Of a stretch of DNA of 64,000 nt, positions 42,001-51,000 are shown piece after piece. Origin of the DNA: Candidatus Poribacteria bacterium (GTDB lineage: Bacteria; Poribacteria; WGA-4E; PCPOR2b); NCBI GenBank assembly GCA_965208325.1, contig OZ242326.1, positions 1,024,001-1,088,000 of the forward strand, in the 5' to 3' direction. The position numbers are program-made. The stretch's first letter is position 1, and every line of letters begins with the position of its first letter.

Positions 42001-45000
42001 TTCAGAGGCTGGCGCTTCGTCCGCCGAATCTGCCTGAACGTCTTTTGCGCCGTCTTCCGATGTAGTGCCTTCGGCTTCCGCCTCTATTTGTACCTCTATT
42101 GTTTCTGACATTTCATCACCTCATATCAATGGATTCAATCACTAATGGCTCATCATACCGCCTTTTGAAGATGTTGACCGATAACATGCGCCGTAAATTT
42201 TACGATTGACACCACACGCGAGTATTCCATCCGCGTTGGTCCGATCACGCCTATGGTGCCGAGTAAATCGCCTTGAACGCTAAAAGTCGACTGGACGACA
42301 CTGCACATCTCCATTCCTTCACACCTATTTTCGCTGCCGATAAGCACCTGAATGTCAGGACTCTCTTTTTTTGGCGAGAGGAGGTCTGCTACTCGTTCTT
42401 TTTGCTCCAAAAAACGAAACAACGGTTCAATTTGTTCCACTTCCAAAAATTCAGGCTGGCCGAAAAAATTGGAAGTGCCGTTTAGATAAACGTGGATTTC
42501 CCTATCCAGCGAAAAGGTGCTGCGCGCCAGCGTTGCGACAGAATCAGACAGATCCTGATCGAAAACCGCTTTTAGATTTTTATGGCTTTGTGAAATTCGT
42601 TGTATCTCCCCCAAGGACAATCCCGCTAACTTTTCATTCAGAATTCGGCTGATTCGTTTGATATCAGCTTTGGATACGCTTTCACGGATGGAAATCACTT
42701 GATTCTTGACAAGCCCTGAATTCGTAATCAATACGACTACTACCCGCTGGGTATCGAGCGGAATGAGTTCCAATCGCCGTAGAATACCATCATGCAATTG
42801 AGGGCTTAAAGCAACTCCGATGTAATGAGAAATTTGAGATAAAATCTTAGAAGTCTGTTCGACGGTTTCAACAATATCGAGTTCCGATGAGTCGTACCAT
42901 TGTCGAATGAATCTACACTCCTCATCCGTTAACCGTTGAGTTGTCATCATATTGTCGACGTACACGCGATAGCCGAGTTCCGTTGGGATTCGCCCCGCCG
43001 ACGTATGCGGTTGCGTCAAGTAGCCATATTCTCCAAGCTGCGCCATCGTATTCCGAATAGTTGCCGGGCTCAATCTCATGTCACATTGCCGAGCAATCGT
43101 CCGGGAGCTGACAGGCTTCGCTGTCCGATTATAGCATGTAATAATCGCTTCAAGCACCTCGCGTTTTCGGGCATTCAGCACAGCGGTTGTCAATGGCGCC
43201 GCCCCCATCTCTCTTAATGTTAGCACTCTTTTCATAAGAGTGCTAAATCGGGTAAAGATACCATTTTACCCACCGATGTGTCAAGCCAAAAGGAAAAGAG
43301 TCACATGCCAGCGTCATCGACACGAACCCTTTCTCTCTGCACCTCGAAGACCAGTTTTAATTTGCGCCGCCTTACCGGCCACGCCCATATAAGTAACACT
43401 GCACCCTATCTGTATGCACACTCATCCATGGACTGCATCTGCGAATCTCTTCATTAACGAGAAGGAGTTTTGCTGTTCAATGACGTTTCCTGTCACAATA
43501 AAGTCCGCCCCGGCGTTTACCTTTGCAACAGCCAACTCCGGCGTCGTGATTCCTCCGCCCACTATGATAGGAATAGTAACGTGTTTGCGAACGGCGCCGA
43601 TTAATTCCTCCGGAACGGGTATTCTTGCGCCGCTGCCCGCCTCAAGATAGATGAACTTCATACCGAGATACTCCGCAGCAAGCGCGTGCGCCCACGCAAT
43701 GTCCAATTTATCACGCGGAAGCGGGGCAGTCCCGCTCATAACTTCAACCGACGTAGCAGTACCACCGTCAATAAGCATATACCCTGTGGATATCGCCTCT
43801 ATACCGCAACGGTGAATTAATGGCGCCGCTTTGACCTGCTCGCCGATTAGAAAATTGGCATTCCGGCCGCTGATTAGGCTTAGGTATAATATGGCATCGG
43901 CATGCTGGGATAGGTGCATAGAGTCCCCGGGGAACACAATGACCGGTAAAGACGTCTCGTCCTTCAAGGCTTTTGCAAACGGGTTGAGGTCATTTGTCAA
44001 GAGGCTGCTCCCCAGCAACAGTGCATCAACTCCTGCTTCTTCCGCTTGATGCGCAACATGCATGCAATCGGCGATGGAATGCCGATCGGGGTCTAAGAGC
44101 ACAATGTAGCCTGCTCTGCATCTTGACAGAACATTCAGTAGGTAATCTAAGGTTGAACCTGATTTCATGGGGTTAGGTGTTTGGAGATTCGTTTTTTCAA
44201 ATCTGCTCTCGCCGCCATTGAATCTGATGGAATTAGACCGATTGCGTCAGAGCCATCCGGAGCGTATGAGATGTCTCAATTCCAGTAGCAAGCGTGGTTG
44301 GTGCATCAACACCGTCTTAAAAATCTGCATCATGTTGACCTTGTCAGGCGGCATCTTTGACACCACCTCCGCACACTTGTCAAAAAGGTCATCACTGAAC
44401 TTAAGCACACCATCTCGTATTCGGCAGACGTGCTTGAAATTACTGCCAATTTCCTTGTCCCACCGGTTTTGATAAGCGCTCAAAATCTTTGCGGACACAT
44501 CTCCAATTCGGATAGCATCGACCGCCGCGTCGGCGGCAAATTGTCCCGAATACATTGCGTTTGCGACCCCGCCGCCAGAAATAGGATCGCTATGGTGCGC
44601 CGCATCGCCAATCAGCATAATCCCGTCACCCACAATCTTGGGCAGACTATTCCCTACCGGCACACAACCGACGACCTGCGCAAGAATTTTTCCGTGCGGA
44701 AATTTTCGTTTGACGAATTCATTTAGATAGTCGATGGCGAGCTTCCCGCCCTTACCGGAGATTGTCCCGCCGATTCCGATGCCGACATTCGCAATGTCAT
44801 CTCCTTTAGGGAAAACCCAGGCATAGCCTCGCGGCGCAAGCTCGCGGCCAAGGTAAAAATCGCAGAAATCGGGGATAATGCCAATCTTAGAAATTAAGTA
44901 TTGGGCGCAAATGTCCACGTCACGTAAATCGTGTGTGCTATCTATGCCCGCCCACCGCGCCACCTGCGATTCAATTCCGTCGGCAGCGATGACGACCTTC

Positions 45001-48000: not shown

Positions 48001-51000
48001 CGAACTGGACGAATGGAATAAACGACGCCAAGTAAGATTGAAAGCCCAATTAGGACGAGATAGCTCAGGTTGTTTCTAAACCAGAAACCTGCCCAAACCA
48101 CGGCAGAAACAAGTAACATGCCGGCTTCCAACACAAGCAGCCGAATTTTCACATGTCCCTGCGCAACGAGAAAGAGTTTGTTGTTTGCTGCGTCTGTTTC
48201 TTTGTCACAGATTTGGTTGATGATGTAAATTGCCCCCATCAGCATAGAGTACAAACAGAGGGTACCCAGCAACTCATGATTGGGACGAACCAAAATATTA
48301 AATTTCGGCAGAAATGCGAGCTGTACTGCCCTCAATCCTTCGTATGTAGAAGTGTCAGACAATGCGCCATAATAGCCAAGCAACACAAGGGTCCAAACCG
48401 GCAGCAGCAGTGTTGGACGAAGGACAATTATATAATCCAAAAGATGTATCGCGCTGCGTTTCGTGGGTTGCAGCTTAGTTTGAGTGAGTGAATTTCCCAT
48501 TCCAAATCCGACTGCGCCTGAGATGCCGCGTCCACAATACATGGGAATTCTTGCGTATGACGCATCACGCGTAACGTAGTACGTTTAAGTATGCAAAACG
48601 ATTGATGAGTCTGTTTTTTAAGCACTCAAATTTAAAACGGCGTCTTCCCAATAAACCGAGTTTTCCCTGGAAAGATCGAAAGGTGTCACATCGATAGATT
48701 CCCATCCGCGGGAAACGGTACATCGCTTCAAGTGATAACTCCCGGACTGGATCCAAGCTAAACGCGATGCGGTATCCGGCAGATTTCACCAAATCCAATG
48801 TCTCCGCATTCACACTTCCATACGGATATGCGAAACTCCGAACGGGGCGGCCTAGAATATGCTCGAGCCGGTATTTAGATTCCTCGAGCTCTGCGTTTGC
48901 CTCGACCCGGCTGCAATGCGTTAAGAAGCGGTGGTGCAATCCGTGGGACCCAAACCCAATCCCATTTTGGACGAGTGATTTAATTTGGCTTTCGCTTAGA
49001 TGTTTAGGGCGTTTTAAACTGCGCTGCACATCCCACTCATTTAACCGTCCAATGTATGCCGCAATCATAAATACAGTTGCCGTTAAGCCGTATTTTTTCA
49101 GGATCGGGTAGGCGAAATTATAGAAGCTTTCATAGCCGTCATCGAAGGTAATGAGGATTGGATTACATGGCAATGCGGAATGAGATGAGATGAAATGAAT
49201 TAAGCTATCCGGGGTGATAGCGGTATACCCCTGCGCCGCAATAAATCGCATCTGGGACTCAAAAGTTTGCGGAGAAATAGAGTTTACCCCAAGTTCGAAT
49301 TCAACGTCCACTTGATGATAAGCCAGAACAGGAATACACCATTTCATTGGGAGGGGAGTTAGGTGTTTTGAAACTTTTCTACGACCCAGTCGATTCCTCA
49401 TTAATTCGGCGGCATTTATCTTCTAACTCAAGCACTCGCTGCTGTAGCCGGGAGAACTCTTGCAACATAGCGGGTAGTTTGCGGAGAGAGGCTTGGATAC
49501 GTAATTGCTGAGCGTGCGGCCGCGCCGGGAAGCCGGACACATAACTTCCCGCCGGTGTATCTTTTGTAACGGCGGATTTTGCAAAGATAATGTTCCCTTC
49601 GCTTATTGTGAGATGCCCTGCGACCCCTGATTGCCCCGCCATCGTTACCCTGTCTTTGAGTTCGCTGCTGCCTGCGATTCCTGATTGGGCAGCGATACAA
49701 CAATCTTCACCAATTATGACATTGTGAGCAACCTGCACCAGATTGTCGATTTTGGTGCCGCGCTTGATTATTGTCGCCCCATTCGTCATCGTAGCGCGGT
49801 CTATTGTCGAATTGGCGCCAATTTCGACATCGTCCTCAATGATTACTGTGCCAACCTGTGGAATCTTGTAGTACCGATCGCTGACAGCGGCAAAACCAAA
49901 TCCATCGCTGCCAATTACCGCTCTACTGTGAATAATGACACGATTTCCAACCTTGACCGCGTCGTAAATGGTGACACCGGGATAGAAGAGCACATCACTT
50001 CCAATCTCGACGTCATCTCCGATATACACGAATGGGTTGATAACCGCACCATTGCCAATTTTGACGTTATCGCCGACGACGGCAAAGGCTTGGATTGAAA
50101 CCTGCTCCCCAATCTGGGCGTTTTTGCCGATGATTGCAGTTTCATGGATGCCGTACTCGGTTTCCCGTTTTGGCCATGCAAACATCTCCATCACTTTGAC
50201 GAAAGCAAAATACGGATTATCAGCACGGATCGTCGGCTTGCCATTTTCTCCATTCGTCGGAATAAAGTCCTTGCCGATGATAACTGCGGAAGCCTGTGTG
50301 TGCTCTATTTCCCCCCGATACTTGGCGTTTGCGACAAAGGTAATTTCGTGCTCTTGCGCCTCCTTAATACCCGAAACGCCCCGAATTTCAATCTCGCCGT
50401 CGCCGCACAACTCTCCACCGATTAACTCACAGACTTCCTTCAACTTCTTTACCATCGTTCTCCGAGTTGACGATTGCTGCGCATCAACCCTGCTCCCTTA
50501 TGCTGCTCTTATTTGACGCCCGGCCGTCTGCGAACGCACAACCCGCCAATAGCCTACTCCACTGTACATTGAAAACCGTACATGTGCCAGCAGCTACTCA
50601 TCTTTATTGGCGCCAGTTGCTGCAGCGGGTTTTTCATCCTCAGCAGTGGCTTCTTGTTCGTATTCTGTATTCAATATCTCAATAATGTTATTCGTTAAAT
50701 CGTGCTTCGGGTCAACATACAGCGTCACAAGGCGTTTTTCGAGGATTATACTATAATTTTCGTTCGTACCAATCTGTTGAATTAACGCTTGAATCTCATT
50801 CAAAATGGGCTGGAACAGTTCCGTCTGTTTTTCCTGTAGCGCGCCTTGGCCGACCTCCAGCTCACGCTGAAACTCCTGCTTTTTCCGCAGAATGTCACCC
50901 TCTAAAGTCTGTGTGGCCGATTCATCAAGGAAAAGTTTTTGCTTGGTCAGACTGTCCTCCATGTCTACGATTTCTTCCCTAAGTGCTTCCAGTTTATCGC

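Follow-up and report, generated by a model that had tools for sequence, protein, structure and literature searches.

In a sponge-symbiont bacterium of the phylum Poribacteria, an archaeal-type enzyme that saturates isoprenoids, geranylgeranyl reductase (GGR), is encoded with a UGA codon in place of its essential active-site cysteine, a form truncated in gene calls. The reading of this UGA as selenocysteine (Sec) is strongly supported and is held here with high confidence; sequence comparisons also make it very likely that the enzyme is a ferredoxin-driven isoprenoid reductase. The full explanation, a Sec-containing archaeal-type GGR that works with a ferredoxin on the ether lipids of its own operon, is probable, the ether-lipid reading of the operon being only partly supported. 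The gene lies in the 64,000-nt stretch of contig OZ242326.1 analysed here (the window; contig positions 1,024,001 to 1,088,000), among the features listed below.

Features of the GGR operon, in window positions
Feature	Position	Strand	Remarks
GGGPS (geranylgeranylglyceryl phosphate synthase, PcrB/GGGPS family), predicted to form the first ether bond	43422..44168	-	NCBIfam, PDB matches
GGR (geranylgeranyl reductase) gene	44247..45440	-	397 codons, predicted Sec at codon 46
SECIS-type hairpin	45273..45289	-	starts 13 nt after UGA; 7-bp stem, 3-nt loop, invariant G first
In-frame UGA, read as selenocysteine	45303..45305	-	at the site of catalytic Cys47 in archaeal GGRs
Ferredoxin, 72 aa, two [4Fe-4S] clusters	45440..45658	-	Pfam Fer4 families; stop overlaps GGR start (ATGA)
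SpoU-family RNA 2'-O-methyltransferase	45770..46591	-	Pfam SpoU_methylase 118.9 bits
UbiA282, DGGGP synthase-like UbiA prenyltransferase, candidate for second ether bond	46598..47446	-	Pfam UbiA
Second UbiA-family prenyltransferase, 355 aa	47475..48542	-	Pfam UbiA 64.5 bits

An earlier note on this DNA had described one 397-residue GGR homolog interrupted by a single TGA within the motif PVR-U-AEG, and both points stand. Read through its sole in-frame TGA (context PVR-TGA-AEG), the gene gives a product of 397 residues that matches Pfam GGR_cat (88.6 bits) and NCBIfam TIGR02032 (230 bits, cut-off 158.8). Residues 5–392 align with the digeranylgeranylglycerophospholipid reductase of Thermoplasma acidophilum (PDB 3oz2, E = 3e-77), and the structure of Sulfolobus acidocaldarius GGR (SaGGR; 3atq, 4opc) is matched at E = 5.8e-32. 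Homology to these two enzymes is full-length, and the GxGxxG, RxxxD, PxxYxWxFP and LxGD motifs common to all can be read in the translation. Codon 46 aligns with a Cys in both enzymes (in 3oz2, that of PVRCGEG); at this site the archaeal proteins have the essential Cys47, whereas the poribacterial enzyme, whose host is bacterial, would have Sec. According to the accessible part of PMC10821996, all archaeal GGRs retain Cys47, which is essential to the Sulfolobus enzyme. Scores against the NCBIfam equivalog models lie far under their cut-offs (295 versus 780 for DGGGPL reductase, and 171 versus 580), and the protein is therefore regarded as a family member, not as a demonstrated functional ortholog.

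Automated gene calls cut the gene into a 45-residue piece and a downstream piece, and public databases list truncated products only: among the matches listed, the 48 proteins of at least 68% identity all cover just 70–86% of the query, and those of 67% identity or less include full-length forms. This is the pattern to be seen if the TGA were a true stop in a pseudogene or split gene, with a downstream part unused or made from an internal start, and a few relatives do carry extra damage (a TAG at codon 65 in G134, frame disruptions in G026 and G076). Such a stop is nevertheless extremely improbable. In all 38 orthologs, at 68–100% identity, the interruption is a TGA and in none a TAA or TAG; 37 of the 38 copies are free of any other stop or frameshift, and the terminal stops of these orthologs vary among TAA, TAG and TGA. 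The 45 upstream codons, which include the indispensable GxGxxG FAD-binding motif, are under strong purifying selection; codons 2–45 show coding periodicity (entropy 0.32, 0.13 and 1.41 at positions 1, 2 and 3) and contain no stop in any of 36 sequences, and the downstream piece by itself would lack the dinucleotide-binding fold. Contigs from four other runs, each from a different study, have no difference at the TGA or hairpin and 9–21 differences over 1412 nt.

Across 176 Poribacteria genomes, GGR is matched in 56. One in-frame TGA occurs in 39 of these matches (38 full-length and one partial at a contig end; one of the 39 also has a TAG), all in families f1–f4 of one order and 68–100% identical, and the 11 full-length matches at 49–67% identity have no in-frame stop. 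These counts reproduce those first reported. At the TGA position, the codon of the stop-free forms is TGT in eight and TGC in three (Cys in 11 of 11), and all 38 full-length TGA forms have TGA there. Cys forms branch deeper than Sec forms. In the tree, 37 poribacterial Sec-GGRs form one clade (support 99/98) nested among the Cys forms, and thus a single Cys-to-Sec switch probably occurred in the phylum. A KSB1-like metagenome contig (L142), with a GGR of 44% identity, represents a second, unrelated lineage with a predicted Sec-GGR. The proposal of a new selenoprotein family holds insofar as a literature search found neither GGR listed as a selenoprotein nor any Sec-GGR described, but the form is not unique to Poribacteria.

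In bacterial Cys/Sec enzyme pairs, as in the E. coli fdhF type, SelB decoding relies on a hairpin just after the UGA, and the spacing and G-first loop seen in GGR are typical of bacterial SECIS elements. Likeness to the fdhF type extends to a UGA at the homologs' Cys, a short stem-loop at a constant small distance downstream in the coding sequence, and selA, selB, selC and selD in the genome; the difference lies in the protein family, GGR being a flavoprotein with a p-hydroxybenzoate-hydroxylase-like fold for which the literature search found no listing as a selenoprotein. A covarying hairpin about 14 nt after the UGA had been claimed from 15 of 15 loci. With the start set at 13 nt, all 38 full-length TGA-form loci have it, and the covariation is confirmed. 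Hairpin cells are paired in 88.9% of cases, versus 24.8–56.4% for slid partners, and the pairing, the double-changed cell count and the covariation score each exceeded those of all 500 shuffles. Pairing is retained through changes on both sides at pairs 24–38 (CG/UA/UG), 25–37 (AU/GC/GU) and 29–33 (CG/AU/UA/UG), and the changes swap residues (Thr to Ala together with Cys to Arg or His) with the pairs retained. Third-position entropy is lowest in the hairpin region of the 401-column alignment (codons 51–56, 0.557 versus a mean of 1.409), codon 53 reading NNG throughout for each of four amino acids. Weaker points are that the region, folded as a single sequence, does no better than shuffles (z = -0.56), that RNAalifold retains just five pairs with weak energy, that 19 of 36 rows have a break in the lower stem, and that three pairs changed on both sides are unexceptional among shuffles (227 of 500).

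A hairpin alone is no proof of SelB binding, and the Rfam search gave no family match and no SECIS model; both points would also fit a read-through stimulator, the UGA being decoded as Cys, Trp or Gly by near-cognate read-through or local recoding. This is very unlikely, given that UGA replaces Cys as in a classic Cys/Sec pair, that the spacing and loop are of SECIS type, that TGA otherwise serves this genome as a normal stop (terminating 657 of 1916 long open frames) and that all four Sec genes are present. Of these genes, tRNA-Sec, SelA and SelB had been named in the earlier note; they score over cut-off (77.5, 588.7 and 373.5 bits), as does SelD (376.8). Furthermore, 38 of the 39 genomes with a TGA form have a SelA match; in family f5, where none of three genomes has one, GGR is of the Cys form. 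The TGA-form genome with no SelA match is G032 (90% complete, 730 contigs); SelA is likewise not matched in G076, which holds a frame-disrupted GGR copy. Under selenocysteine decoding, SelB with Sec-tRNA(Sec) would recognize the hairpin and Sec would be inserted without termination, yielding a full-length, flavin-dependent GGR with Sec46 on the flavin side.

In almost every locus the ferredoxin gene immediately precedes GGR, and in deep-branching relatives (465–510 residues) the two are fused; ferredoxin is the likely electron donor. The translationally coupled 2[4Fe-4S] protein would pass electrons to GGR, where reduced FAD and Sec46, in the role of Cys47, would hydrogenate the C=C bonds of geranylgeranyl chains. 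A parallel is found in Methanosarcina acetivorans, where GGR MA1484, expressed in E. coli, is active only with the neighbouring ferredoxin MA1485 (Isobe 2014, through the accessible portions of PMC9385802 and PMC7852524). As far as those texts describe it, a small ferredoxin gene adjoins the GGR gene in both systems, but it is downstream in M. acetivorans and upstream in Poribacteria, where the genes overlap by ATGA or, in relatives, are fused; the poribacterial reductase differs also by its predicted Sec, and its ferredoxin coupling is a prediction.

GGGPS, a DGGGPS-like UbiA and ferredoxin, named earlier as the operon's contents, are confirmed, and two genes in the same range are added, the SpoU methylase and the second UbiA. 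GGGPS exceeds NCBIfam cut-offs (TIGR01769, 210.7 versus 161.55; NF003198, 274.7 versus 247), with 4jej (1.5e-52) and 4mm1 as best PDB matches. UbiA282 stays under them (NF009523, 245.7 versus 269; NF009521, 231.7 versus 296), its best PDB match being M. jannaschii DGGGPS (6m31, 5.7e-37). The second UbiA reaches no NCBIfam model at cut-off; in the Atlas it lies near UbiA clusters from WOR-3, Bacteroidota and Zixibacteria, and it is retained upstream in families f1–f3. For GGR, GGGPS and UbiA282, the top PDB hits are enzymes of the kind that the earlier note had named from Swiss-Prot.

From these genes, the most probable GGR substrates would be isoprenoid glycerol ethers made by GGGPS and the DGGGPS-like enzyme, with lipid activation via the ordinary bacterial CdsA and a saturated archaeol-like diether as the presumed product; that the physiological substrate is an ether lipid is somewhat likely. 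The lipid-operon reading of the earlier note is upheld for the core: several families, with Sec and with Cys forms, share the order UbiA282–ferredoxin–GGR–GGGPS, which is found from the deepest Cys branches (f8, f10) up to the Sec-GGR loci. It is weakened by the phylum-wide spread of the synthase pair, mostly without GGR (of 176 genomes, 144 have GGGPS, 145 the DGGGPS-like gene and just 56 GGR; ∼88 have both synthase genes and no GGR), and by family f4, where the ferredoxin–GGR pair, flanked by uvrA and a DnaJ-domain gene, is apart from both synthases. The low DGGGPL reductase score and the missing G1P dehydrogenase and CarS also count against an ether-lipid substrate. The spread of the synthase pair without GGR and the f4 arrangement would suit a Sec-GGR acting on another isoprenoid (free GGPP, polyprenyl carriers, quinone side chains or the product of the second UbiA, which has no assigned substrate), the operon linkage being only partly functional; GGRs are moreover described as promiscuous, with many substrates in vitro, in the available parts of PMC9385802 and PMC10821996. 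This alternative is rather unlikely in view of the constant gene order, of the top NCBIfam and PDB matches, which are digeranylgeranylglycerophospholipid reductases, and of genus g7, where GGR, GGGPS and the DGGGPS-like gene are jointly absent from 19 of 20 genomes.

The ether-lipid reading has a counterpart in Ca. Cloacimonetes (FCB group), for which the accessible part of Villanueva et al. 2021 (PMC7852524) describes GGGPS, DGGGPS and a euryarchaeal-like GGR, without CarS and G1P dehydrogenase, and proposes bacterial CdsA as the CarS substitute. Compared with that account, the poribacterial genome has the same gene pattern and the same gaps: as remarked earlier, no G1P dehydrogenase over cut-off and no CarS (CDP-archaeol synthase) were found in it, and it encodes CdsA and two polyprenyl synthases. 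It differs in belonging to a sponge-associated phylum, in having the genes in one operon with ferredoxin and a second UbiA, and in a reductase predicted to be a selenoprotein. The claim of new archaeal-type lipid synthesis is thereby narrowed: the literature search found no GGGPS pathway reported for Poribacteria, but bacterial ether-lipid genes were already known from Ca. Cloacimonetes. As to the SpoU-family gene, it lies between UbiA and ferredoxin in some loci only, at varying distances, and is probably a passenger of the operon.

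The geranylgeranyl reductase (GGR) gene of this Poribacteria genome is interrupted by a single TGA at codon 46, and its start codon overlaps the stop of the preceding ferredoxin gene (ATGA). The protein obtained by reading through this TGA matches Pfam PF22578 (GGR_cat) with 88.6 bits (cut-off 27) and NCBIfam TIGR02032 with 230 bits (cut-off 158.8), and is a member of the geranylgeranyl reductase family. Scores against the NCBIfam equivalogs for digeranylgeranylglycerophospholipid reductase stay below the cut-offs (NF041160, NF041080 and NF041385: 295 versus 780, 171 versus 580 and 99.5 versus 700), so that the substrate is not assigned by homology. 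The closest PDB relative is the lipid reductase of Thermoplasma acidophilum (3oz2, E 3e-77, residues 5-392), followed by the GGR of Sulfolobus acidocaldarius. In both alignments the TGA falls on the cysteine of the flavin-side motif. The translation contains VGAGPGG, RKVFD, PRGYAWVFP and LIGD, i.e. the motifs named GxGxxG (FAD-binding), RxxxD, PxxYxWxFP and LxGD in the available text of a 2024 review (PMC10821996). According to the same text, the cysteine (Cys47) is conserved across all archaeal GGRs and indispensable to the enzyme of Sulfolobus (citing Sasaki 2011), and its role in electron transfer or flavin tuning is speculative (citing Xu 2010).

That a TGA interrupts the reductase at a conserved cysteine had been claimed in an earlier note, together with counts of TGA-containing and stop-free forms across the phylum. 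The claim is confirmed, and a read-through search of 176 phylum genomes returned the same counts. A GGR match occurs in 56 genomes. In 39 it contains a single TGA (38 full-length genes and one left incomplete where its contig ends; a TAG is also present in one of the 39), and all of these belong to families f1-f4 of one order, with 68-100% identity. The 11 full-length stop-free matches come from other families and classes (49-67% identity). All 38 full-length TGA forms (hereafter Sec forms) have their TGA at one and the same position, codon 46, and the Cys47 column of the stop-free Cys forms is occupied by TGT (eight) or TGC (three); the partial form L043, too short at a contig start, was left out of this check. 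The terminal stops of the same genes vary (TAA, TAG, TGA), codon 46 being invariably TGA. Four further public runs, which come from four studies and are labelled sponge metagenome, have contigs spanning the gene (95-99% identity). These show 9-21 differences over 1412 nt, but never within the TGA or the hairpin that follows it. No RNA run was among those listed for the stretch. The 44 codons upstream of the TGA show the signature of translated sequence under purifying selection: mean column entropy is 0.32 at first, 0.13 at second and 1.41 at third codon positions, and 36 sequences are all free of stops there. They encode the dinucleotide-binding motif, and a protein beginning after them would be unable to bind FAD. 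A changed genetic code, under which TGA would be a sense codon throughout, is excluded because TGA ends 657 of the 1916 open frames of at least 300 codons in this genome and thus is an ordinary stop. Three damaged TGA forms were seen, with an additional stop at codon 65 (TGG changed to TAG) in G134 (locus L038), a frame disruption near codon 112 in G026 (L082) and another around codons 75-87 in G076 (L085), a genome also without a SelA match. They reflect either decay or assembly error.

A conserved hairpin with compensatory changes had likewise been described after the UGA. It is now found in 38/38 TGA-form loci, all of which can form the 7-bp stem, and the first base of its loop is an invariant G. 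In an ungapped alignment 88.9% of stem cells are paired, versus 24.8-56.4% with partners slid by 1-3 columns, and 0/500 column shuffles attain the pairing of the real alignment, its count of doubly changed cells (26 versus 10.1) or its covariation score. Three pairs covary, at alignment columns 24-38 (C-G, U-A, U-G), 25-37 (A-U, G-C, G-U) and 29-33 (C-G, A-U, U-A, U-G). The replacement of A-U by G-C at 25-37 is found in families f1, f3 and f4, and thus occurred more than once. The changes in the stem bring amino-acid replacements with them, of Thr by Ala in one arm and of Cys by Arg or His in the other, with pairing retained. In a 401-column alignment of 37 Sec forms, codons 51-56 constitute the six-codon window of lowest third-position entropy (0.557, with 1.409 as the mean over the gene), a sign of synonymous-site constraint. 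Codon 53 encodes Glu, Ala, Val or Pro but is NNG throughout, and its third-position G is the invariant loop base. Several results make the case for the hairpin weaker. Single-sequence fold energy over the 82 nt after the UGA is not better than in shuffles (z -0.56), RNAalifold keeps just five pairs with weak energy, and the number of pairs with double changes (three) is not above shuffles (227/500). An extended lower stem (columns 17-21 with 41-45), suggested by a single-sequence fold, was dropped, as it is broken in 19/36 rows. An Rfam scan of window positions 45150-45450 gave two chance-level matches and no model for the hairpin. By eye, equivalent sequence is absent at this place from the 11 Cys forms.

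The decoding machinery reported earlier is present: SelA (588.7 bits), SelB (373.5 bits) and tRNA-Sec (77.5 bits) lie side by side in the genome and, like SelD (376.8 bits), score over curated cut-offs. SelA is found in 164/176 phylum genomes. Among the 39 genomes with a TGA form only G032 (90% complete, 730 contigs) gave no match. In family f5, which has the Cys form, SelA matches in 0/3 genomes; it is present in other genomes with the Cys form. The SelD gene, outside the window (C1:4481278-4482201, minus strand), contains one in-frame TGA (VKCAG-TGA-ASKLD), which points to a selenoprotein form of SelD. Its post-UGA fold was set aside as an internal SECIS comparator. Folds there shift with the length folded; one of them places a 6-bp stem closed by a GGG loop 11 nt downstream of the UGA.

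Selenocysteine (Sec) is the selenium analogue of cysteine, and its insertion at codon 46 is by far the best explanation of the UGA and, judged from comparative sequence evidence, very probable. The putative Sec-GGR would be the Sec counterpart of an already known Cys enzyme, and its decoding would follow an established bacterial mechanism. As a rule Cys gives way to Sec only at sites where the thiol takes part in the reaction; hence a natural Sec form speaks for a genuinely catalytic Cys47 in GGRs. If the assignment is correct, a flavin-dependent lipid-modifying enzyme joins the bacterial selenoprotein families, and the natural Sec/Cys pair of GGRs would be useful for mechanistic work and for terpenoid-reduction biocatalysis. 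No Sec form of a geranylgeranyl or digeranylgeranylglycerophospholipid reductase was found in the literature, and the papers found on selenocysteine in Poribacteria, judged by titles and opening lines of abstracts, do not deal with GGR.

In a maximum-likelihood tree of 49 rows (midpoint root; L038, with its extra TAG, and the partial L043 left out), 37 Poribacteria Sec forms constitute one clade with support 99/98. Cys forms of families f9, f6/f7, f5, f10 and f8 make up a ladder in which this clade is nested, and the tree follows taxonomy. A single Cys-to-Sec switch at the base of the order would explain the pattern. Further Sec forms were sought with the degenerate pattern E-[IVM]-G-x-P-x-[RS]-TGA-[AG]-E, which is blind to those with other flanking residues. 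Its 52 loci in a species-representative genome collection comprise 40 GGR genes, all from Poribacteria and two of them frame-disrupted (L082, L085), and 12 loci from other phyla that do not resemble GGR and are about as many as chance would give. In metagenome contigs it matched 34 loci, i.e. 27 Poribacteria-like GGRs with the TGA (70-84% identity), six chance matches and one outlier. The outlier, on contig L142 (94-1272, plus strand), is a GGR of 44% identity with a TGA at the same Cys position (REIGVPVR-TGA-AEAVG), and its hairpin is ambiguous, with two competing stems. Its named relatives (57-69% identity), from candidate division KSB1, Calditrichaeota and unclassified bacteria, are of full length. 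Among the 120 relatives listed, only three cover at most 88%, namely the truncated call of L142 itself and the public proteins P0206 and P0212, which could be further Sec forms. Thus a second, sporadic candidate Sec-GGR exists outside Poribacteria. A TGA-form GGR was not found in a sample of 401 Thermodesulfobacteriota genomes, of which two matched at E<=1e-60. The open reading frame after the L142 GGR (L142:1284-1673, plus strand) carries a CDP-alcohol phosphatidyltransferase-like motif.

In the window the reductase belongs to a row of genes on the same strand, in the order UbiA355 (a UbiA protein of 355 aa), UbiA282 (a DGGGP synthase-like, or DGGGPS-like, UbiA prenyltransferase of 282 aa), SpoU-family methylase, ferredoxin, GGR, GGGP synthase (GGGPS) and hrcA-grpE-dnaK.

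Features of the GGR locus, with positions counted along the window
Feature	Position	Strand	Remarks
UbiA355 prenyltransferase	47475-48542	minus	head of operon; no NCBIfam cut-off reached
UbiA282, DGGGPS-like	46598-47446	minus	closest PDB relative: Methanocaldococcus DGGGP synthase 6m31 (5.7e-37)
SpoU/RlmB-like RNA methyltransferase	45770-46591	minus	between DGGGPS-like gene and ferredoxin
Ferredoxin, 72 aa	45440-45658	minus	directly upstream of GGR; two CxxCxxCxxxCP motifs
GGR	45440 to 44247	minus	one 397-codon frame; sole interruption TGA 45305-45303, motif PVR-TGA-AEG
Hairpin	45289-45273	minus	7-bp stem and 3-nt loop; starts 13 nt after UGA
GGGPS	43422-44168	minus	after GGR; TIGR01769 210.7 (cut-off 161.55), NF003198 274.7 (cut-off 247)
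hrcA-grpE-dnaK	39429-43235	minus	directly downstream of GGGPS; names by eye from translations

The earlier reading of this row as an ether-lipid operon holds in part. GGGPS exceeds its cut-offs, with 4jej (1.5e-52) and 4mm1 as closest PDB relatives, and the core order UbiA282-ferredoxin-GGR-GGGPS is kept with Sec forms of families f1, f2 and f3 and genus g15 as well as with Cys forms of f8, f9 and f10. UbiA282, however, scores just below the cut-offs of its best NCBIfam models (245.7 versus 269, 231.7 versus 296), its next PDB match being chlorophyll synthase (7.7e-13), and GGR is restricted to 56 of the 176 genomes. The methylase and the second UbiA protein occur only in some loci. The methylase does so at varying distances, and is probably unrelated to the lipid genes. 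In the Atlas, UbiA355 neighbours clusters of UbiA proteins from WOR-3, Bacteroidota and Zixibacteria. In deep-branching relatives ferredoxin and GGR are fused into proteins of 465-510 aa with Fer4 domains (L049 and L050 in genomes G002 and G001; public proteins P0071-P0119, for example P0119 with 470 aa), good evidence that the two work jointly. Further good evidence for the partnership is the need of the Methanosarcina GGR for a neighbouring ferredoxin (Isobe 2014, as cited in the available texts of PMC9385802 and PMC7852524).

Across the phylum GGGPS is found in 144/176 genomes and a DGGGPS-like gene in 145/176, and the two are distributed almost alike over the genera. Most members of family f4 have both synthases side by side at another place, and GGR, where present, stands with ferredoxin between uvrA and a DnaJ-domain gene. 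A DnaJ-domain gene comes after GGR in f4, versus hrcA-grpE-dnaK after GGGPS in the window. In genus g7 (G037-G056), 19/20 genomes are without GGGPS, DGGGPS-like UbiA and GGR, with SelA in 20/20, and the whole lipid module appears to have been lost. The DGGGPS-like matches of family f8 (G009, G010, G012-G016) have one in-frame stop each (TGA in four, TAA in two, TAG in one). Such mixed stop types argue against recoding, and the stops are either alignment run-overs or marks of broken genes.

The gaps in the pathway listed earlier remain. PF01864 (CarS, CDP-archaeol synthase) has no match in the genome, and no G1P dehydrogenase (EgsA/AraM) exceeds its cut-off among the three scanned of five Fe-ADH_2 matches (genome 95.6% complete). 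By eye, the remaining two are of the dehydroquinate-synthase and Fe-alcohol-dehydrogenase types. The best candidate dehydrogenase, outside the window (C1:2018243-2019304, plus strand), resembles glycerol dehydrogenase (GldA-like), with 80.5 bits to the G1P dehydrogenase model NF002022 (cut-off 413) and 323 bits to NF006941 (cut-off 336); the weak G1P dehydrogenase match lies in its N-terminal part. It is the only candidate seen for synthesis of the glycerol phosphate backbone. A bacterial CdsA (185.7 bits) and two polyprenyl synthases are present. The same gap pattern, without CarS and G1P dehydrogenase, is described in the available text of a study on Ca. Cloacimonetes, in which the activity of GGGPS and DGGGPS was demonstrated and CdsA was suggested as a stand-in for CarS (PMC7852524). 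Given this likeness, the operon represents a bacterial pathway of a known kind, new at the level of the phylum. No mention of a GGGPS pathway in Poribacteria was found in the literature, in which supplementary tables (PMC7852524 and similar surveys) could list Poribacteria as carrying GGGPS/DGGGPS. A 2026 preprint on ether lipids of sponge symbionts (10.64898/2026.06.23.733905) deals with elb-type alkyl ethers and, in its available text, never mentions GGGP.

A link of the GGR to archaeal-type diether lipids is plausible and somewhat more likely than not, and we infer the product of the operon, be it saturated or unsaturated. With the phylum-wide pair of GGGPS and DGGGPS-like genes, Poribacteria take a place beside Ca. 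Cloacimonetes as possible makers of archaeal-type ether lipids, which bears on how archaeol-type biomarkers in sponges are read. It is tempting to propose, if only tentatively, that membrane-lipid saturation is selenium-dependent throughout this order of sponge-symbiotic Poribacteria. Sec46 would be catalytic, as a proton donor or as the nucleophile of a flavin adduct, in a ferredoxin-driven reductase finishing saturated archaeol-like diethers from bacterial GGGPS and DGGGPS. The switch to Sec would have been fixed once in the phylum, with no reversion among 37 sampled genomes, and would have arisen again in a KSB1-type lineage. If so, the long-debated Cys47 of GGRs would have a redox or nucleophilic role.

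The Sec-GGR also exposes a systematic annotation gap. Among the best 120 public proteins, all 48 with at least 68% identity cover only 70-86% of the query, are without N-terminal Rossmann-type Pfam hits and are 283-345 aa long, except for one of 398 aa. The full-length proteins among the 120 (98-100% coverage) all have at most 67% identity. This split of coverage by identity indicates that Sec forms are systematically truncated by gene callers. As the close relatives are truncated at codon 46, surveys based on called proteins miss or mis-score the reductase of Poribacteria.
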